A stretch of DNA of 64,000 nucleotides. Origin: Escherichia coli (GTDB taxonomy: Bacteria > Pseudomonadota > Gammaproteobacteria > Enterobacterales > Enterobacteriaceae). The notes beneath the pieces are model-generated. The model was not told the origin of the DNA. It saw only the letters and a list, made by a program, of their open reading frames with translations, and did no database searches. Location: assembly GCF_051903065.1 (NCBI RefSeq), contig NZ_CP178438.1, one strand, 5' to 3'. This document shows, piece by piece, positions 8,212 through 47,681 of the stretch (the first letter of the stretch is position 1; every line of letters begins with the position of its first letter). The position numbers and the translations under genes are program-made.

Positions 8212-8523
8212 TTATCGATTGTTTTGCCCCGCAGACTGTGCGCGCTTCGACGCGTCAGGTACCAGACGATAAAAAGTTTCGCCCGGCCTGGTCATGCTGA
8301 GTTCATTACGCGCACGCTCTTCGAGCGCCTCCTGGCCGCCATTGAGATCGTCAATTTCGGCAAAAAGTTGATCGTTTCGCGCTTTAAGTTTCGCGTTTGT
8401 AGCTTGCTGTGCCGCCACATCATCATTGACGCGGGTATAGTCATGTATACCGTTCTTACCGAACCACAGCGAATACTGTAGCCAGACCAGAATAGCCAGC
8501 AACAGCAGCGTTAGTTTACCCAT
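8212..8523 (-). CDS. ftsB: Cell division protein FtsB
   Basis: 103-aa [28 protein letters not shown]..., N-terminal TM followed by coiled-coil-like region. Confidence 0.95.
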
Positions 8524-8716
8524 CCTGCCCCCTGAAAAACGGCATCATCATCCCATGCATCCGAAGACGACTCTACATCCTCTGTTGGGGATACCGCGAC
8601 AACGCGGGCAAATGTACCACATTTGTCCATTGTTACGTATACCCAGGGCGTGCAGAACATAATCTCATTATTAGTTACGGTTTGAATTATGAACAGAGGA
8701 GACGAGAAAGTACAAA

Positions 8717-9040
8717 TTAGCCCAGTAGCCACATAAACAGTGCGCCAAACATAATGCCTACTGTCACCAGGGTGAAAACAATACTGTAGCGTAGCTTTCC
8801 GTCCATCAATGAATGCAGCGCAATCCCCACCACTACCGCGACGGGCATCAGCGCCAGAAAGAAAGGCCAGGTGTAGATAAAGAAGAACAGCGTGTTAGAG
8901 CCATAAATCAACATCGGCATCGCCAGCGCAAATAACCAGGAGATAAAACCGACCACGGCACCAGGCAGTGACCATGTGGTTTCTTCATCCTCAGTAAGGC
9001 TGTCGTTATTTGTTAGTGTAATGTTATGGCTATTACGCAT
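8717..9040 (-). CDS. ygbE: Small inner-membrane protein YgbE
   Basis: 107-aa hydrophobic ORF at the conserved position between ftsB and cysC. Confidence 0.8.
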   Translation of the reverse strand: MRNSHNITLTNNDSLTEDEETTWSLPGAVVGFISWLFALAMPMLIYGSNTLFFFIYTWPFFLALMPVAVVVGIALHSLMDGKLRYSIVFTLVTVGIMFGALFMWLLG

Positions 9041-9089
9041 ATTTGATCCTGTTACTTTGACGAACCGGGCATGGAAACCCGGTGGTGTC

Positions 9090-9695
9090 TCAGGATCTGA
9101 TAATATCGTTCTGTCTCAACAGATCTAATAATTGCTGTACCAAATTTGTTACTAATTGTTCACCATTGAGATGAATTTCTGCCGATTCAGGCGCTTCGTA
9201 AACGGAATCTATTCCCGTAAAGTTGCGCAGTTCACCGGCACGCGCTTTCTTATATAAGCCTTTGGGATCGCGGGCTTCGCAAATCGCCAGCGGCGTATCG
9301 ACAAACACTTCGATAAAGCGCCCTTCTCCTACGCGTTCGCGAACCATCTGGCGTTCGGCGCGGTGTGGCGAGATAAATGCGGTCAGCACCACCAGTCCGG
9401 CTTCAACCATCAAATTCGCCACTTCACCGACGCGACGGATATTCTCTTTACGATCGGCATCGCTAAAACCGAGATCGCTGCATAATCCGTGGCGAACATT
9501 ATCGCCATCCAGCAGATACGTACTGACGCCGAGTTTATGTAACGCCTCCTCCAGCGCCCCGGCAACCGTTGATTTACCGGACCCGGAGAGGCCGGTAAAC
9601 CACAGCACTACACCACGATGACCGTGGTGTAGCTCGCGTTGTTGCACAGTGACCGGATGGCTATGCCAGACGACGTTTTCGTCATGCAGCGCCAT
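9090..9695 (-). CDS. cysC: Adenylylsulfate (APS) kinase
   Basis: 201-aa ORF with P-loop GLSGSGKST. Confidence 0.97.
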
Positions 9696-39519: not shown

Positions 39520-40576
39520 GGCTTTGTTGAATAAATCGAACTTTTGCTGAGTTGAAGGATCAGATCACGTATCTTCCCGACAACGCAGACCGTTCCGTGG
39601 CAAAGCAAAAGTTCAAAATCACCAACTGGCCCACCTACAATAAAGCCCTCATCAACCGTGGCTCCATAACTTTCTGGCTGGATGATGAAGCTATTCAGGC
39701 CTGGTATGAGTCAGCAACACCTTCTTCACGAGGCAGACCTCAGCGCTATTCTGACCTTGCCATCACGACTGTGCTGGTCATTAAACGCGTATTCAGGCTG
39801 ACCCTGCGCGCTGCGCAGGGCTTTATTGATTCCATTTTTTCTCTGATGAACGTTCCGCTACGCTGCCCGGATTACAGCTGTGTCAGCAGGCGGGCAAAGT
39901 CGGTTAATGTCAGTTTCAAAACGCCCACCCGGGGTGAAATCGCACACCTGGTAATTGATTCCACCGGGCTGAAGGTCTTCGGTGAAGGCGAGTGGAAAGT
40001 CAAAAAGCATGGCCAGGAACGCCGCCGTATCTGGCGTAAGCTGCATCTCGCCGTTGACAGTAAAACACATGAAATCATCTGCGCTGACCTGTCGCTGAAC
40101 AACGTTACGGACTCAGAGGCCTTCCCCGGGTTAATCCGGCAAACCCACCGGAAAATCAGGTCAGCCGCCGCCGATGGCGCTTACGATACCCGGCTATGTC
40201 ACGATGAACTGCGGCGTAAGAAAATCAGCGCGCTTATCCCTCCCCGAAAAGGTGCGGGTTACTGGCCCGGTGAATATGCAGACCGTAACCGTGCAGTGGC
40301 TAATCAGCGAATGACCGGGAGTAATGCGCGGTGGAAATGGACAACAGATTACAACCGTCGCTCGATAGCGGAAACGGCGATGTACCGGGTAAAACAGCTG
40401 TTCGGGGGTTCACTGACACTGCGTGACTACGATGGTCAGGTTGCAGAGGCTATGGCCCTGGTACGAGCGCTGAACAAAATGACGAAAGCAGGTATGCCTG
40501 AAAGCGTGCGTATTGCCTGAAAACACAACCCGCTACGGGGGAGACTTACCCGAAATCTGATTTATTCAACAAAGCC
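39520..40576 (+). mobile_element. IS903-family (IS5 superfamily) insertion sequence, 1057 bp, intact, with 9-bp target site duplication
   Basis: 18-bp terminal inverted repeats GGCTTTGTTGAATAAATC at 39520-39537 and (reverse complement) 40559-40576. Direct repeat ATTTTCACT at 39511-39519 and 40577-40585. One transposase ORF spans the element. Confidence 0.93.
39597..40520 (+). CDS. IS903-family DDE transposase
   Basis: Open frame from 39552 (TTG) in the track; likely start GTG 39597, giving ~307 aa. Start assignment is uncertain. Confidence 0.85.
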   Translation: MAKQKFKITNWPTYNKALINRGSITFWLDDEAIQAWYESATPSSRGRPQRYSDLAITTVLVIKRVFRLTLRAAQGFIDSIFSLMNVPLRCPDYSCVSRRAKSVNVSFKTPTRGEIAHLVIDSTGLKVFGEGEWKVKKHGQERRRIWRKLHLAVDSKTHEIICADLSLNNVTDSEAFPGLIRQTHRKIRSAAADGAYDTRLCHDELRRKKISALIPPRKGAGYWPGEYADRNRAVANQRMTGSNARWKWTTDYNRRSIAETAMYRVKQLFGGSLTLRDYDGQVAEAMALVRALNKMTKAGMPESVRIA

Positions 40577-40976: not shown

Positions 40977-41554
40977 TGGTTTATCCCCGCTGGCGCGGGG
41001 AACTCGTACTGACGGATAAAAATAATACCTTTTGCGGCGGTTTATCCCCGCTGGCGCGGGGAACTCGTCAACGTTTTTCATGTGGGCATGAGTTGGGGCG
41101 GTTTATCCCCGCTGGCGCGGGGAACTCTATTCGGCCTCGTGCTGGTCGTGACAAAATACCGGTTTATCCCCGCTAGCGCGGGGAACTCTGGCGATATTGC
41201 CTACCGCAACAAAGAAAATACGGTTTATCCCCGCTAGCGCGGGGAACTCATCCACGAATCCAGTGCAAATGAGTTTGTTGGCGGTTTATCCCCGCTAGCG
41301 CGGGGAACTCATTGTGACTACCACCGATAACCCCGCAACCACCGGTTTATCCCCGCTAGCGCGGGGAACTCCTGCATTCGCCTGCGGTTATCAGATCGCT
41401 AAACGGTTTATCCCCGCTAGCGCGGGGAACTCGCTGCCATTACTTCCCGCCAGCGTTGCTCTGGCGGTTTATCCCCGCTAGCGCGGGGAACTCGCAGAGA
41501 ATCGTTCGATTGCCCCTACATCTTCCGGTTTATCCCCGCTGGCGCGGGGAACTC
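40977..41554 (-). CRISPR. CRISPR array 2 (type I-E): 10 repeats, 9 spacers of 32 nt
   Basis: 29-bp repeat CGGTTTATCCCCGCTGGCGCGGGGAACTC at 40977, 41038, 41099, 41160, 41221, 41282, 41343, 41404, 41465, 41526. Repeats 4-9 have CTAGCGC instead of CTGGCGC; repeat 1 starts with T. Leader on the high-coordinate side. Confidence 0.97.
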
Positions 41555-41700
41555 TCTAAACATAACCTATTATTAATTAATGATTTTTTAAGCCAGTCAC
41601 AATCTACCAACTTTACAGTATCACACAAACAACACATCCATTATGTTAAAGAGCGCTTAATCCATTGATTAAAAAGGTAAATATTTAAAATAACTCTATA
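41555..41700 (-). promoter_or_regulatory. CRISPR array 2 leader (AT-rich)
   Basis: AT-rich; contains CAATCTACCAAC about 45-58 nt from the first repeat as in leader 1, and a second similar copy AAAATCTACCAAAC further out. Confidence 0.65.
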
Positions 41701-41892: not shown

Positions 41893-42564
41893 TCAGGCAA
41901 TATTTAGATATTTATGTGTTTGCATCGACAAACGCCAATTACGCGCAATGCAGATTTCAATGCACAATCGTGTGGCATCATCCTTTTGGCTAATCGGCTG
42001 CAGTGCAATGACTCGCGGTTTATCATCGGTCAGCGTTGCCAATAGTTCATCCAGTGCTTCAATATCGCGTACGCGCCCCACTGGATGCTTGATTTCGTTG
42101 GCTCGCTCCAGTGCCTGTGACAACACTTCATAGCCGCCGCGCATGTTCAGCTTTGGCGATACGGTAACCCAGGTATTCGGTGTGCAGCGTACCTCATGAG
42201 TACCACTGGTTTCGATCTGGCAGCTAAAACCGTTCTTTTCGAGCAGATCAGTCAGTGGTAGCAAATCATGAATGCAAGGCTCACCACCCGTAATCACCAC
42301 ATGCCGCGCGGTGTATCCCTGGCGACTAATGACAGCCAACAAGTCTTCACTGCTCGCCGCCCCCCACTTATCACTCTCTTTGGTCTTCGCCAGAATGCTG
42401 AAAAGGGAGACTTCCCGATCCTCAAGCTTTTCCCAGGTGTGTTTGGTGTCGCACCAGGCACAGCCAACCGGGCATCCCTGTAAACGAATAAAAATGGCGG
42501 GGACGCCGGTAAAGTAACCCTCACCTTGCAGGGTCTGGAACATCTCGTTAATCGGGTACTGCAT
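41893..42564 (-). CDS. queE: 7-carboxy-7-deazaguanine synthase (radical SAM)
   Basis: 223-aa ORF MQYPINEMFQTLQGEGYFTGVPAIFIRLQGCPVGCAWCDTK... Confidence 0.95.
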   Translation of the reverse strand: MQYPINEMFQTLQGEGYFTGVPAIFIRLQGCPVGCAWCDTKHTWEKLEDREVSLFSILAKTKESDKWGAASSEDLLAVISRQGYTARHVVITGGEPCIHDLLPLTDLLEKNGFSCQIETSGTHEVRCTPNTWVTVSPKLNMRGGYEVLSQALERANEIKHPVGRVRDIEALDELLATLTDDKPRVIALQPISQKDDATRLCIEICIARNWRLSMQTHKYLNIA

Positions 42565-42736
42565 AGCATTCTCTGTGAAGTGGATAATTGTTAATTATTG
42601 CAGATCCTGCCACAACAATCATGTCTTATTAACATTCTGTTACAGGCAGGCTTATGGCAAAAAGTGGATTAGATCATAAAGAATAAAATGAAGCAGTGTA
42701 TTATGTTTTAAGGAATTAATTAAAAGGGATTTAAAC

Positions 42737-43339
42737 ATGCTCAGAATATGCATCGTAATTATATTTATTTTCAATTTATCAGGCTGTGGATATAACGATA
42801 TTCAAACCTATGATGAGCAGGTTAACGCCTCCTGGTCTGAGGTATTAAATCAATATCAACGTCGCGCCGATCTTATTCCTAATCTTGTCGCCAGTATTAA
42901 AGGTTATTCCAACCATGAAAAAGACGTTTTGGAAGCCGTAACATTGGCTCGTAGCCAGGCTAATCGCGCCAGCAGCGATCTTCAGCAAGCTCCCGGAGAT
43001 GCACAAAAATTACAAGCCTGGCAACAGGCCCAGGCGCAGGTGACTCGCACTCTCGGTCAGTTAACGATAATTAGTGAGCGTTACCCTGAGTTAAAGGCTC
43101 AAGAGCTCTATCAAAACTTAATGGTACAGCTCGAAGGAAGTGAAAATAGAATTGCCGTTGCGCGAGGAAGATATATTAAAGCCATTGAACAATATAATGT
43201 CACTATCCGCAAATTCCCCGCTGTATTAACCGCAAAGGTCATGGATTACACACCAAAGAAAAATTATTTGCCGGATGATGTCACCGCAGTAAGTAAAGCC
43301 CCAACAATAGATTTTAGCCAGAATGCTAATGCTCATTAA
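42737..43339 (+). CDS. LemA-family lipoprotein
   Basis: 200-aa ORF with lipobox-like signal (FNLSGCG) followed by LemA-like helical region (WSEVLNQYQRRADLIPNLV...). Confidence 0.8.
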   Translation: MLRICIVIIFIFNLSGCGYNDIQTYDEQVNASWSEVLNQYQRRADLIPNLVASIKGYSNHEKDVLEAVTLARSQANRASSDLQQAPGDAQKLQAWQQAQAQVTRTLGQLTIISERYPELKAQELYQNLMVQLEGSENRIAVARGRYIKAIEQYNVTIRKFPAVLTAKVMDYTPKKNYLPDDVTAVSKAPTIDFSQNANAH

Positions 43340-43352
43340 GCGGGGAACTTCT

Positions 43353-44246
43353 ATGCGAAATTTTATCTTCCTTATGGCTTTCTTCTGTTCATCTGTGTTT
43401 GCCACACAAATTCCAGTACCTGAATCCCCCAAGTATGTGAATGACTTAACCGGCACATTAACAAACAGCGAAGTAAACACCCTGACCAACCAGATTAAAG
43501 CCCTGACGCAAAAAAACCACGCACAGTTGGTCGTGTTAGTGGTTGATACAACAGGCGATGAAACCATCGAGCAGTACGCAACGCGGGTATTCGATAGCTG
43601 GAAACCGGGTGATAAAGACCGCGATGATGGCGTTCTACTGTTAGTCGCCTGGCAGGATCATACCGTGCGTATTGAAATCGGTTACGGGCTGGAAGGTATT
43701 ATTACGGATGCACAGTCCGGGAAAATTATTCGCAACAGTATTATTCCTGCATTTAAAAAAGGCGACCTGGCTGGCGGTTTACAAAAGGGGATCAGCGATA
43801 TTGAAAGTCGTCTTACGGGGAATAATTTAGCAACGATAACACCGACCGATCACCCTTTGCCCTTTAGCGGTTGGTGGGCATTGTTAGTCTGGGCGATAGT
43901 ACTGACATTTATTTCTGCCAGAGGATATATCAAAACGCTGGGAGTAATTTGCTTCGCAGCTATTGTACTGGCCTTTGTTTTACCTATAGCAGGCTTCAGC
44001 GGAAGCTGGGGAGTACTCGCAACATTACTCTGCTTCGCCACACCGTTCCTGGCTGTCGCCATCGCTTTTACCCCCTTCGGCAAAAAAGTTCGGGATTTGA
44101 TGCGTGATGTCAACCAGCCATCACGCCATACAAGAAGCAATTCTTCCTCCCACTATTCATCATCGTCATCCTCTTCATTCAACAATGACAATTTCAGCGG
44201 TGGTGGCGGTTCATCTGGTGGCGGTGGCGCTTCCGGGCGCTGGTAA
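43353..44246 (+). CDS. TPM-domain membrane protein (YgcG-like), paralog 1
   Basis: Start at ATG 43353 (MRNFIFLMAFFCSSVFA signal peptide); TPM-like domain (DLTGTL..., VVLVVDTTGDETIEQYATRVFDSW), 2-3 TM helices, Ser-rich then Gly-rich tail ending GGGGSSGGGGASGRW. Confidence 0.8.
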   Translation: MRNFIFLMAFFCSSVFATQIPVPESPKYVNDLTGTLTNSEVNTLTNQIKALTQKNHAQLVVLVVDTTGDETIEQYATRVFDSWKPGDKDRDDGVLLLVAWQDHTVRIEIGYGLEGIITDAQSGKIIRNSIIPAFKKGDLAGGLQKGISDIESRLTGNNLATITPTDHPLPFSGWWALLVWAIVLTFISARGYIKTLGVICFAAIVLAFVLPIAGFSGSWGVLATLLCFATPFLAVAIAFTPFGKKVRDLMRDVNQPSRHTRSNSSSHYSSSSSSSFNNDNFSGGGGSSGGGGASGRW

Positions 44247-44260
44247 CAAAAGGAATTGAT

Positions 44261-45409
44261 ATGCGTATTTTTCTCTTACTTCTGATGCTATGCAGTTTTC
44301 AGGTATTCGCTGAACGATTGCCTTCAGTGAATGACTTAACCGGGACATTAACGACAGAAGAACAAAGTGTTTTAAATCAACAATTAAAGACTCTCGAGCA
44401 GCAAAACCACTTCCAGGTGGCCGTGTTAGTTACGCCAACCACAGGGGGCAAAAACATTAAACTTGCAGCCTCGCAGAGCTACGGGTTATATCACTGGAAA
44501 CCCATTGGAGAGAAGCGATACGGCGAAGGTATCTTAATTCTCGTCGTTTGGCCGGAAGGGCTGGCGTCAATGAAGATTGGACATGGACTGGAAGAGATGT
44601 TGCCGCCGGAACAAGCTGCGCAAATTGTTCGTTACCATATGCAGCCAGAATTCGAAAAAAACAATCTCTTTGCTGGATTAACGGGCGGAATTGAAAGCAT
44701 CGCACAGTTTACCCATATCAAAGCGAACCTTAGCCCTTTGGATGCTTTAGCCAATCATCTGTTTGCTAATCCGCAACGTTCGCTGCCATGTCTTGCCTGG
44801 ACACTGCTGATGATCGTTGCCATCGTTGTCCTCTGGCGATTTGCCAGCCGCCCACGGCGTGGCATATGGATGATATCGATGATTACCCCTATGGTCTGGT
44901 TTTTCTCCTTTCAGGACGATGTCATCATTCGGCGGGTATCGGTCGTTTGTTTTAGTTTATTGTTAGCAACAACCTGCAAGCAGCGTCTCGCGGTAGTTTT
45001 TAATATGTGCCGCGTATTTCCTATGATGCTGACCCCAAAAAATAAAAACTCTAAAGTGAAAAAACAAAAGAAGACTCCGCAGGTTCGTGAATCAGGACGA
45101 AATTCATTGTTTGTCGTGATGCTAATAATTATTGTGGGATGGTGCCTGGTGTTCGCCAGTAATAAAAATATTGCATTCATCTCAACAATTATTGGGTTAA
45201 TTGATCATTTTATCGGCCCAATAACCATTGCTGGCATCGTTCTGCTGATCATTGTGGCCAAATTTACTGGCAATCTTAAGCTGGGGTCAGGAGAAAAAAG
45301 CAACAGGAAAACGGGGAATCGTAATGCTCACTCTCGCTCTTCGTCGAGAAATTCTTTCCGCGGTGGTGGCGGTTCTTCAGGAGGCGGCGGTTCATCCGGC
45401 CGTTGGTGA
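44261..45409 (+). CDS. TPM-domain membrane protein, paralog 2 (divergent, extended membrane region)
   Basis: 382-aa ORF MRIFLLLLMLCSFQVFA...; same architecture with additional TM segments and a Lys-rich insert; tail GGGGSSGGGGSSGRW. Confidence 0.75.
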   Translation: MRIFLLLLMLCSFQVFAERLPSVNDLTGTLTTEEQSVLNQQLKTLEQQNHFQVAVLVTPTTGGKNIKLAASQSYGLYHWKPIGEKRYGEGILILVVWPEGLASMKIGHGLEEMLPPEQAAQIVRYHMQPEFEKNNLFAGLTGGIESIAQFTHIKANLSPLDALANHLFANPQRSLPCLAWTLLMIVAIVVLWRFASRPRRGIWMISMITPMVWFFSFQDDVIIRRVSVVCFSLLLATTCKQRLAVVFNMCRVFPMMLTPKNKNSKVKKQKKTPQVRESGRNSLFVVMLIIIVGWCLVFASNKNIAFISTIIGLIDHFIGPITIAGIVLLIIVAKFTGNLKLGSGEKSNRKTGNRNAHSRSSSRNSFRGGGGSSGGGGSSGRW

Positions 45410-45414
45410 TCGTA

Positions 45415-46308
45415 ATGCGCTTAATCTTTATTCTATTCACTTTGTGGTGCCTTCCTGGGCTTGCCCAGCAAATTGCTGTGCCGGAACTGCGCCAACAGGT
45501 GACCGATATTACTGGTACGTTAAGCACTTCTGAACAACAATCACTGACACAGCAACTGCAGGATATTACACATAAAACACGGGCGCAGGTCGCTGTATTA
45601 GTAGTGCCGTCCACCGGAGACGATTCCATTGAACAATATGCAACACGCGTTTTTGATAGCTGGAAACTGGGAGATAAGCAGAGAAACGATGGTATTTTAC
45701 TTCTGGTTGCCTGGGAGGATCATGCTGTTCGTATTGAGGTTGGCTACGGGCTGGAAGGGATGGTTACCGACCTGCAAGCGGCGAAAATTATCAGGGATAT
45801 ATTGATCCCTGCCTTCAAAAGTGATGACCTGATGGGTGGATTAACACTGGCAAGCGAAAATATCGGCGCGCTTCTGTTGAATGGTGAATTATCGGAAGAC
45901 AAGGGGGATTATTACAGTATCAATCCCCCTATTCCATTATCGCTTGCTGTAATTATATTGCTGGCGGTACTTTCATATTTTATTGTTTTTACCGATCCGT
46001 CGAATTTACCCTGGATCACTCTCACTGGCGCCATTTACGGGATGGTATTCCTCTATGTTGCCGAGCCAGGACCATGGACCAATTTAATCGTTGCCTGCGG
46101 TATGTTAACACCTTTTGCGATCGTGACGCTGGTTATTTTTTGGCTTATCGTTAATAAAAAGCTACGCGCCAAATACAAAAAACTCAGTAAAGAAAGAGCT
46201 TCAAGAAAAGGTTCTTCTTCATCCTCTTCCGGTGGAGGCTCAAGTGGCGGCGGATTTAGCGGCGGGGGCGGTTCTTCTGGCGGTGGCGGCGCGTCCGGTC
46301 GCTGGTAA
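45415..46308 (+). CDS. TPM-domain membrane protein, paralog 3
   Basis: Start at ATG 45415 (MRLIFILFTLWCLPGLA); close to paralog 1 in the TPM domain (VAVLVVPSTGDDSIEQYATRVFDSWK); tail GGGGSSGGGGASGRW. Confidence 0.8.
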   Translation: MRLIFILFTLWCLPGLAQQIAVPELRQQVTDITGTLSTSEQQSLTQQLQDITHKTRAQVAVLVVPSTGDDSIEQYATRVFDSWKLGDKQRNDGILLLVAWEDHAVRIEVGYGLEGMVTDLQAAKIIRDILIPAFKSDDLMGGLTLASENIGALLLNGELSEDKGDYYSINPPIPLSLAVIILLAVLSYFIVFTDPSNLPWITLTGAIYGMVFLYVAEPGPWTNLIVACGMLTPFAIVTLVIFWLIVNKKLRAKYKKLSKERASRKGSSSSSSGGGSSGGGFSGGGGSSGGGGASGRW

Positions 46309-46312
46309 CTCA

Positions 46313-46350
46313 ACCATAAAAAACGCCAGCCCGGAGGCTGGCATTTTTAA
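46313..46350. terminator. Bidirectional intrinsic terminator between the TPM operon and eno
   Basis: AAAAAACGCCAGCCCGGAGGCTGGCATTTTTAAA: GC-rich hairpin flanked by an A-run and a T-run. Confidence 0.7.

Positions 46351-46367: not shown

Positions 46368-47681
<1,314 letters not shown>

Follow-up and report, generated by a model that had tools for sequence, protein, structure and literature searches.

The four genes lemA, TPM1, TPM2 and TPM3, which lie between queE and eno in the stretch of Escherichia coli DNA analysed here (the window, 64,000 nucleotides), appear on balance to be the complete enterobacterial form of a widespread LemA–TPM envelope module and the probable ancestral state of the ygcG locus. 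The genes occupy positions 42737–46308 on the plus strand and are tightly packed, with successive intergenic gaps of 13, 14 and 5 nt (Table 1). All four are already annotated, and the exact TPM1 and TPM3 proteins carry the source-database name 'YgcG family protein', TPM1 in many E. coli records. RefSeq marks TPM1 as a pseudogene in two genomes despite its intact ORF, and we consider this label to be probably wrong. Alternative starts are present for TPM1 (ATG at 43323) and for TPM3 (45403 and 45406, of which PGAP uses the GTG at 45406).

Table 1. Coordinates of the lemA–TPM array and associated features in the window.
Feature	Position	Strand	Description
queE–lemA divergent intergenic region	42565..42736	.	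presumed promoter region for both genes
lemA, LemA-family lipoprotein, 200 aa	42737..43339	+	LemA domain predicted periplasmic; PF04011
TPM1 (type a), 297 aa	43353..44246	+	signal peptide, periplasmic TPM domain (residues 29-151), three membrane segments, basic linker, Gly-rich tail
TPM1 tail	44199..44243	+	GGGGSSGGGGASGRW
TPM2 (type b), 382 aa	44261..45409	+	divergent TPM domain, about five membrane segments, Lys-rich loop, Gly-rich tail
Lys-rich loop of TPM2	residues 257-281, nt 45029-45103	+	alignment and hydropathy
TPM2 tail	45362..45406	+	GGGGSSGGGGSSGRW
TPM3 (type c), 297 aa from ATG	45415..46308	+	signal peptide, TPM domain, three membrane helices, basic linker, Gly-rich tail
TPM3 membrane helices	residues 175-246, nt 45937-46152	+	AlphaFold2 model
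TPM3 tail	46261..46305	+	GGGGSSGGGGASGRW; AlphaFold2 strand at residues 288-296, last block pLDDT 92
Terminator-like stem-loop, convergent TPM3/eno	46325..46342	+	GCCAGCC-CGGA-GGCTGGC then ATTTTTAAAT

An earlier reading of this DNA, made from its letters alone (the sequence-only reading), had described a tight plus-strand operon of lemA and three TPM paralogs, and we recovered all four ORFs where it had placed them, with Pfam matches to LemA and TPM. The LemA domain matched PF04011 over the full model (E 1.4e-48; residues 32–193, model positions 1–149 of 149), and TPM_phosphatase (PF04536) was found in all three paralogs; for this profile, 5/5 aligned sequences matched at E <= 0.001, the best at 3.8e-41. 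The three TPM genes are old paralogs of ygcG, with 36–46% identity among their proteins. Profile and hydropathy scans agreed with the signal peptide, TPM domain and at least two membrane helices that had been ascribed to each. Their signal-peptide-like N termini end VFA/T, VFA/E or GLA/Q, and the segments over the hydropathy threshold after the domain number three in TPM1, four in TPM2 and two in TPM3. The extra membrane segments and Lys-rich insert reported for TPM2 were likewise found, its reading as about five segments including a weaker one between the first two. All three paralogs have the features of YgcG-type proteins, namely a signal peptide, a TPM domain, one or more membrane segments and the C-terminal motif FSGGGGxxGGGGASGxW.

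The LemA protein begins with MLRICIVIIFIFNLSGC, which contains a predicted lipobox (LSGC, residues 14–17); its relatives have either an LSGC or LTGC lipobox or a transmembrane helix as anchor. It shares the LemA domain with Thermotoga LemA (PDB 2ETD, 'lemA protein'; E 4.3e-32) and with the magnetosome protein MamQ. However, the identification of the window protein as MamQ was rejected, as it scored 87.8 bits against the equivalog cut-off of 250 (NCBIfam NF040966), and it has no magnetosome context.

To place the array among E. coli strains, we examined complete genomes. The four-gene form occurs in 1,102 of 5,426, and lemA in 1,451. The reduced form of K-12 accounts for 72%. In K-12 MG1655, the queE–eno interval contains yqcG and ygcG only, which bears out the smaller K-12 content given in the sequence-only reading; lemA and two paralogs are missing. 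The same reading had proposed a strain-variable expansion. Strain variability held up, but expansion is probably the wrong direction, because E. albertii and E. whittamii, too, have lemA and paralogs of types a, b and c in the queE–eno interval. TPM1 orthologs in other Escherichia species are 84–92% identical, variants of the array are found at this site in other Escherichia, and Entomohabitans has lemA and two paralogs there.

K-12 YgcG (b2778) and YqcG (b4682) are encoded at the same chromosomal site as the window array. YgcG has the architecture of the window paralogs, with a signal peptide, a TPM domain, three hydrophobic segments and an identical tail (...GGGFSGGGGSSGGGGASGRW), but it is a single paralog of another type (d, 31–42% identical to the window three) and is not accompanied by lemA. 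Positions 1–206 of the K-12 interval match window positions 42565–42771, and yqcG shares with lemA the signal-peptide codons ATT ATA TTT ATT TT, read in an unchanged frame. This alignment identifies the 46 codons of K-12 yqcG as what remains of the lemA 5' end. The last ~80 nt of ygcG and the downstream spacer are 94% identical to those of TPM3, showing that recombination occurs at this end of the array.

Beside queE, ~90 nt show near-identity among the window, K-12, the type-B locus and E. albertii. EMSA showed binding of phosphorylated PhoP to 300-bp fragments from the region upstream of queE in K-12 (PMC4974570). PhoP-box matches in the window were not above chance, and a simple scan of 42565–42736 found no convincing sigma-70 site. 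The RefSeq name of YqcG is 'cell envelope stress response protein', and in an sppA mutant of F. columnare both lemA and a TPM gene were induced; with the PhoP binding in K-12, these observations connect the module to envelope stress. We found no experimental function for a bacterial LemA/YgcG pair in the literature that we searched.

LemA and YgcG-type TPM proteins are very widespread, and a search with the TPM domain only returned 21,809 cluster representatives at E <= 0.001. In six of the seven contexts with a visible upstream side, LemA immediately preceded a tailed TPM gene, and the window's layout of lemA followed by a tailed TPM gene was present at loci L017, L019, L020, L025, L027 and L028. 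A short leaderless TPM gene was adjacent in 6/8 contexts. The usual operon, for example that of Chitiniphilus purpureus (L017), consists of lemA, a long TPM and a short TPM. As in the window, a LemA with a lipobox or N-terminal anchor precedes a tailed TPM, and the genes overlap or sit tightly spaced; by contrast, the usual operon has one long tailed TPM and a leaderless TPM of ~165 aa ending NELPNxPxxx, whereas the window has three long paralogs only. This long-only layout also occurs in Entomohabitans (L009) and GCA_000302695.1 (L027). A short-type TPM profile gave only weak matches in the 64-kb window, all to the long paralogs, and we found no adjacent short gene. At distant LemA loci (Bacillota, Bacteroidaceae and Woesearchaeota), no TPM neighbour was detected.

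The AlphaFold2 model of TPM3 (mean pLDDT 80.9, above 90 in the TPM domain) contains three membrane helices. Foldseek matched its TPM fold to 5anp and 7tbr (TM-score 0.90–0.91, rmsd 1.9–2.3 Å), and additionally to Psb32, TLP18.3 and chains of the mycobacterial CIII2CIV2 supercomplex. The closest solved relatives of the window TPM domains are BA41 (PDB 5ANP, E 1.6e-19) and Rhom172_1776 (PDB 7TBR, E 1.5e-22), whose structures are of isolated domains and are uninformative about the tail, the LemA partner or the cellular role. Some TPM domains, among them those of BA41 and BA42, reportedly have weak phosphatase or nucleotidase activities, which leaves an enzymatic role some probability.

One alternative, which we regard as unlikely, is that the TPM domains act in the periplasm as phosphatases or nucleotidases, with the paralogs as isoenzymes, LemA as an accessory protein and the tail as a mere spacer or anchor. 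The Pfam name TPM_phosphatase, the identity of these solved relatives, the low acid-phosphatase activity reported for AtTLP18.3 and the metal sites present in several TPM structures are all in its favour. However, recent structural papers on TPM describe a fold without a consensus function, and TPM2 is conserved in three species despite having lost the R and E of the RIEVGYGLEG motif. These residues, invariant and near-invariant in the family, respectively, are substituted in its versions of the motif (SMKIGHGLEE in the window and E. whittamii, ALKMGPGLEE in E. albertii), which hints that the TPM2 domain is non-canonical. With the family profile, the TPM2 domain scored 114 bits versus 293–322 bits for whole TPM1 and TPM3. 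Additionally, a spacer would not be expected to show conservation position by position and an unvarying W at its end, and the motif is also found on a protein that has no TPM domain.

The last 15 residues of TPM1, TPM2 and TPM3 are GGGGSSGGGG(A/S)SGRW. The sequence-only reading had claimed that this one peptide is written in differing codons and had seen in this selection on the peptide, not recent duplication or gene conversion; both points withstood comparison. The DNA strings that it quoted are present, and any two window copies of the tail are identical at 35–37 of 45 nt, with 7–8 synonymous and 0–1 non-synonymous codon differences over the 15 codons. As the remainder of the proteins is only ~40% identical, these differences argue that the tail is under purifying selection. 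The tail is not peculiar to these paralogs or to this strain: the motif is a conserved signature of the whole YgcG-type TPM subfamily, K-12 YgcG included. When we retrieved 150 cluster representatives (50% identity level) with a tail-less TPM query, 107 were found to end F-S-G-G-G-G-x-x-G-G-G-G-A-S-G-x-W, and in these the G at −12, −8, −7 and −6 and the W at −1 are invariant. Most of the remaining representatives resemble fragments or frameshifted calls.

We next considered on which side of the membrane the tail lies. Among the 107 representatives, the net charge is −1.21 in the flank after the TPM domain and +1.44 before the tail (Wilcoxon p 9e-13), and in TPM3 the sequence NKKLRAKYKKLSKERASRK follows the last helix. 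This asymmetry places the tail in the cytoplasm. At locus L026, a 96-aa protein is made up of a single membrane helix followed by RRRVR and the tail, and it lacks a TPM domain. Together, these sequence features lead us to infer that the tail is autonomous and cytoplasmic. Each window paralog has a Sec signal peptide, a number of membrane helices that looks odd and a basic linker next to the membrane; family-wide, a crude count of membrane segments gave both odd and even numbers.

In the AlphaFold2 model of TPM3, residues 288–296 form a strand (pLDDT about 92) next to a linker with pLDDT below 50, and when the tail was fused to a short cytoplasmic TPM, a strand was again predicted at residues 200–204 (pLDDT 91). 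Such a confident strand suggests a docking peptide, and of the roles that had been suggested for this terminus we favour cytoplasmic docking or association over a sorting signal. A tail in the cytoplasm could not, however, physically touch a periplasmic domain of its own chain, and the predicted docking may therefore be an artefact of monomer prediction. More specifically, and only tentatively, we propose that GGGGxxGGGGASGxW-COOH is a dedicated docking ligand that would bind by β-strand addition to a TPM-fold domain or to other tails. If this is true, the TPM fold would be a C-terminal-peptide-binding module, and LemA, long TPM and short TPM would be joined in a complex that crosses the inner membrane; in Escherichia, the long-only array would be a rewired version, with its three tails converging on a cytoplasmic partner.

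We think it improbable that the tail is instead periplasmic, either as a ligand for a PDZ protease of the DegS, Prc or RseP type or folded onto its own TPM domain. The terminal aromatic residue resembles signals read by PDZ domains, the locus is tied to envelope stress through YqcG, and the only other strands in the TPM3 model belong to the TPM domain, so that the strand list, from which the partner of the tail strand was deduced, would point to this domain. However, the family-wide positive-inside analysis, including NKKLRAKYKKLSKERASRK after the last TPM3 helix, the three membrane helices modelled in TPM3 and the L026 mini-protein all speak against a periplasmic tail.

A role in turnover likewise seems to us improbable. 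Here, the tail would be a flexible initiation site for FtsH, or its Gly-rich tract would be 'slippery' and guard against AAA+ proteases. FtsH has tail-length requirements and Gly-rich tracts impair unfoldases, and the tail is cytoplasmic, membrane-tethered and joined by a flexible linker (pLDDT <50). However, initiation of degradation depends little on sequence, which contrasts with the invariant G/A/S pattern and terminal W, and AlphaFold2 gives an ordered strand rather than disorder for the last residues.

We attach very little probability to the possibility that a variable defence island carries the array as cargo, with a role against phages. It is strain-variable, and a 10-repeat CRISPR array and an IS5 copy are about 1.2 kb away; however, none of the four proteins matches any PADLOC-DB 2.0 model (0/4), the array is fixed at its site across Escherichia species with vertical-looking divergence, and all matching places in complete E. 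coli genomes are chromosomal, with none on plasmids. Functionless low-complexity drift or a recent duplication or gene conversion can be set almost wholly aside as the origin of the tail: its Gly/Ser-rich sequence, slippage-prone GGT/GGC runs and the recombination at the ygcG/TPM3 3' end would suit it, but the synonymous codon differences and the conservation of positions across 107 clusters refute this reading.

In the reading that we favour on balance, the LemA and TPM domains would face the periplasm and the tails the cytoplasm, where each membrane-tethered tail could form a β strand and dock onto a partner by strand addition. In the usual module, the best candidate partner would be the cytoplasmic short TPM. 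This cannot be the only role of the tail, as the Escherichia locus has no short TPM and yet its tails are perfectly conserved; as no short TPM gene is nearby, the partner in Escherichia would be some other protein of the cytoplasm, or other tails. If the TPM-fold proteins of known role are a guide, namely Psb32/TLP18.3 (in photosystem II), MOLO-1 (on a receptor) and a TPM-like subunit in the respiratory supercomplex of mycobacteria, the module would most likely assist envelope membrane proteins during envelope stress, as an accessory or assembly factor rather than primarily a phosphatase. Psb32/TLP18.3, which functions in photosystem II assembly and repair, likewise has an extracytoplasmic (lumenal) TPM fold and a C-terminal membrane helix, but it has no glycine-rich extension, and E. 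coli has no photosystem. The paralogs are not themselves Psb32 (NCBIfam NF047379, equivalog): two fell short of the cut-off of 160 bits, at 34.3 and 31.5, and TPM2 was unmatched.

With the array read as the probable ancestral state, ygcG would be reinterpreted as what is left of a larger array, and YqcG, a small protein induced by stress, as a leftover of the LemA signal peptide. At this one locus, E. coli provides a natural genetic series (lemA with three paralogs, lemA with one, and the relic with one), so that the module and its invariant tail can be tested directly in a model organism.

Four genes lie between queE and eno, lemA followed by three TPM paralogs that represent types a (TPM1), b (TPM2) and c (TPM3), with spacings of 13, 14 and 5 nt. 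The LemA and TPM_phosphatase profiles suggested by the sequence-only reading both matched, the latter (PF04536) in all three paralogs (best E value, 3.8e-41). The N terminus of LemA, MLRICIVIIFIFNLSGC, is a lipoprotein signal, and TPM1, TPM2 and TPM3 each begin with a Sec-type signal peptide. The three paralogs share 36-46% pairwise identity. TPM2 exceeds the others in length by 85 residues; its residues 257-281 form a Lys-rich loop, LTPKNKNSKVKKQKKTPQVRESGRN, and it has extra hydrophobic segments. The earlier description of the locus proved accurate in every checkable detail. Membership of the MamQ and Psb32 families was ruled out by scores far under the curated cut-offs.

Features of the queE-eno region and its upstream flank (window positions)
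Feature	Position	Strand	Profile match or description
IS5-family transposase gene	39552-40520		just past the CRISPR array
CRISPR array	40977-41561		upstream of queE; 10 repeats, 61-nt period
queE	41893-42564	minus	TIGR04322, 7.6e-111
PhoP-box-like intergenic site	42638-42654
Nearest PhoP-box match to lemA	42721-42737	minus	2 mismatches
lemA	42737-43339	plus	Pfam LemA, 1.4e-48, full-length match
TPM1	43353-44246	plus	TPM_phosphatase PF04536
TPM2	44261-45409	plus	TPM_phosphatase PF04536
TPM3	45415-46308	plus	TPM_phosphatase PF04536
Terminator-like hairpin	46325-46342		between TPM3 and eno
eno	46368-47666	minus

The CRISPR repeats, CGGTTTATCCCCGCT[G/A]GCGCGGGGAAC, vary at one position, G-bearing and A-bearing repeats being grouped in blocks. 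In two genomes, TPM1 is annotated by PGAP as a pseudogene ('incomplete; missing C-terminus'; comparison locus L001, 4789-5460, and the type B E. coli locus L002, 5789-6460). The TPM1 reading frame is intact to its SGRW tail, one of the flagged genomes is 100% identical to the window over the TPM1 interval, and the exact protein is called 'YgcG family protein' in other records. The pseudogene label is probably an annotation artefact of the low-complexity C-terminal region.

TPM1, TPM2 and TPM3 all end in GGGGSSGGGG(A/S)SGRW. Any two copies have seven or eight differing codons out of the 15 in the tail, and no more than one of these differences is non-synonymous. To avoid bias from the membrane region and tail, we queried 1.84 billion cluster representatives with only the TPM domain of TPM3 and obtained 21,809 matches at E <= 0.001. 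Among the best 150 of these, 107 ended in GGG[AS]S[G]xW; the remaining 43 were mostly short fragments or had the Arg/Ala-rich ends typical of frameshifted Gly tracts. Counted position by position, the 107 sequences yield F(-17) S G G G G x [S/F] G G G G A S G x W(-1), with invariant G at -12, -8, -7 and -6, an invariant W at -1, S at -4 in 106 and A at -5 in 95. K-12 YgcG has the same ending. The tail is therefore not a peculiarity of these paralogs and did not arise in them; it is the hallmark of the whole YgcG-type subfamily. The sequence-only reading is right that selection acts on the tail peptide, and the synonymous codon differences, together with the motif in 107 of 150 representatives, warrant a stronger statement than it made. 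In E. albertii NBRC 107761, the last codon of the TPM2 ortholog is TAG in place of TGG (L005, 4975-4983), and the protein, a natural tail mutant, ends in ...ASGR without the otherwise invariant terminal Trp.

We inspected the genomic contexts of ten diverse tailed representatives and translated their neighbours; nine distinct contexts were informative. LemA lay directly upstream of the tailed TPM gene in six of the seven contexts with a visible upstream side, and a short TPM of about 165 residues adjoined in six of the eight with visible neighbours. The short protein lacks both a signal peptide and a membrane helix and has the C terminus NELPNxPxxx; the one at locus L021 has an inserted membrane hairpin. 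The usual module, as these contexts indicate, is lemA with a single long tailed TPM and a single short cytoplasmic one. The enterobacterial version has two or three long TPMs and no short one: a short-type profile matched nothing beyond the long paralogs within the 64-kb window, and K-12 is not known to have another PF04536 protein. In GCA_000302695.1, a lemA gene whose product is 73% identical to the window's LemA is likewise accompanied by three long tailed paralogs; the chromosomal site is a different one. At another locus (L026), a 96-residue reading frame (527-817) is flanked by a short cytoplasmic TPM gene on one side and two long TPM genes on the other. Its product consists of one membrane helix, RRRVR, a linker and a tail, ...GGGFGGGGASGNW; here the tail occurs without a TPM domain. 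The LemA-TPM association is not universal for all LemA branches, because the distant LemA loci picked up by a genome scan (L010-L015) lacked both a TPM neighbour and a tail-like C terminus.

The queE-eno interval of K-12 MG1655 contains only yqcG and ygcG (the latter of type d), and the number of paralogs differs among genomes, as the sequence-only reading had anticipated. Among 5426 complete E. coli genomes, lemA was present in 1451 (gene coverage of at least 80%), the four-gene interval, again to at least 80%, in 1102, and the K-12-type yqcG-ygcG pair in 3926. A variant with lemA, TPM1 and an unrelated 120-residue membrane protein accounted for 340 genomes, counted through the segment encoding that protein. 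A lemA-positive O157:H7 strain has the locus at 97.7% identity. In L002 (6730-7092), this hydrophobic hypothetical protein stands where TPM2 and TPM3 would be. In species-representative genomes, E. albertii and E. whittamii have lemA with a, b and c between queE and eno; two other Escherichia genomes have lemA with a and c, another has lemA with a, c and d, and Entomohabitans teleogrylli has lemA with two paralogs. Within each type, orthologs from different species share 77-94% identity, and the types differ from one another by about 60%. Because cross-species orthologs are closer than paralog types, the four-gene array is in all probability old and most simply ancestral to the genus, with the K-12 type a reduction; we hold these evolutionary statements, like the gene identities, with high confidence. 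Thus, of the strain-variable expansion proposed earlier, the variability stands (1102 of 5426 genomes) and the expansion probably does not, since the array is shared with E. albertii and E. whittamii and K-12 is reduced.

Traces of this history are visible in K-12. The first 206 nt of its interval align to window 42565-42771, and yqcG, which has an upstream start and a 1-nt deletion, shares the reading frame of the lemA signal-peptide codons ATT ATA TTT ATT TT (IIFIF); the small protein YqcG therefore appears to be a relic of the LemA N terminus. Comparison of yqcG (L016, 3558-3698) with window 42703-42790 showed that a conserved upstream ATG serves as the start and that the lipobox is destroyed. 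The 3' end of ygcG and the spacer to eno are 94% identical to their TPM3 counterpart, in contrast to only about 42% for the rest (protein), which marks a recombination boundary at the 3' end of ygcG/TPM3. In an E. coli locus with lemA, a, c and d (L007), the third paralog (8367-9251) has a type c N terminus. As its 3' part is 94% identical to K-12 ygcG, this gene is a recombinant between paralog types.

Hydropathy windows gave a mix of one, two, three and more segments across the family, too noisy for topology, and we used a flank-charge test in their place. TPM3 has an acidic segment after the TPM domain (ELSEDKGDYY) and a strongly basic one after the last helix (NKKLRAKYKKLSKERASRK), a pattern shared by TPM1 and TPM2. 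Across the 107 tailed representatives, mean net charge was -1.21 over the 15 residues preceding the first hydrophobic segment after the domain and +1.44 over the 15 that follow the last one (Wilcoxon p = 9e-13). Given the positive-inside rule, the signal peptides and the lipobox, we infer that the LemA and TPM domains are periplasmic and the tails cytoplasmic.

In an AlphaFold2 model of TPM3 (67-sequence alignment), the TPM domain had pLDDT above 90, membrane-length helices at 175-191, 195-215 and 220-246 about 75, and the linker below 50. Residues 288-296 formed an unexpected nine-residue beta strand (pLDDT of the last block, 92). Because the TPM domain supplies every other strand of the model, the tail strand is presumably docked on its sheet; such a cis contact of a cytoplasmic tail with a periplasmic domain cannot exist across the membrane. 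In a fusion of a short cytoplasmic TPM (Chitiniphilus, P0151) with a 40-residue tail, modelled from a 35-row alignment, the last residues, 200-204, likewise formed a strand (pLDDT 91) beside a linker below 50. These two models hint at a tail with a tendency to extend a beta sheet by one strand, and at a TPM fold able to receive that strand. The TPM domain of TPM3 superposes on BA41 (5anp) and Rhom172_1776 (7tbr) with TM-scores of 0.90-0.91, and Foldseek also matched the model to Psb32 and TLP18.3. A further Foldseek match (model m569a41039859) was a subunit of the mycobacterial CIII2CIV2 supercomplex (6adq_J, 8ovc_V, 6hwh_O and 8hcr_J), another TPM-like fold acting as an accessory subunit of a membrane complex.

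The scheme that we consider most likely is that LemA and the three TPM domains act jointly on the periplasmic face of the inner membrane, as an envelope module, and that the cytoplasmic tails are tethered docking peptides joining the proteins to one another or to a partner in the cytoplasm. Our confidence in this mechanism is low. In the usual operons, the short TPM would be the obvious candidate partner. The tails are perfectly conserved in Escherichia without a short TPM, so another partner or a tail-tail association would be needed there. Alternatively, the TPM domains could be periplasmic phosphatases. However, in all three species with a TPM2, this paralog no longer has the family-invariant Arg or the near-invariant Glu of RIEVGYGLEG, which fits a non-catalytic, structural role for TPM2 at least. 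The tail could instead be a periplasmic PDZ-type ligand, for which it would have to lie on the side opposite to that predicted from the flank charges, or a turnover signal. That the locus is defence cargo is not supported, given that PADLOC gave no match and the chromosomal site is fixed across species. A meaningless low-complexity tail is refuted by the synonymous codon pattern (at most one exception) and the positional motif in 107 representatives.

PhoP-P binds the homologous promoter region in K-12 (PMC4974570), and K-12 YqcG is annotated as envelope-stress-induced. A PhoP-box search of the window, allowing two mismatches, gave 21 matches against 14 expected, a number reached in 3 of 100 shuffles, which we treat as not significant; only one match lay near lemA. 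The intergenic sequence TGTTACAGGCAGG(C/T)TTA, conserved in K-12 (L016) and L002, resembles a PhoP box (TGTTTA-N5-TGTTTA). Its second half-site, GGCTTA in the window, is the perfect GGTTTA in both K-12 and type B; the whole-window pattern search did not return this sequence. A sigma-70 scan upstream of lemA gave no convincing promoter.

More than a thousand RefSeq genomes already have these genes annotated, under the names 'LemA family protein' and 'TPM domain-containing protein'; Pfam contains both families, and the glycine-rich extension has been mentioned in print. In the literature searched, we found no functional study of the bacterial LemA-TPM module, and no account of the exact tail motif, of the tail as an autonomous unit, of its predicted strand-forming end, of the long-only layout in enterobacteria, of the four-gene array as ancestral or of where yqcG came from. 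Because the TPM-fold proteins whose role is known serve membrane complexes as accessory or assembly factors, and in view of the YqcG annotation and PhoP-P binding, we favour a role for these genes in membrane-protein or envelope homeostasis rather than a purely enzymatic one.
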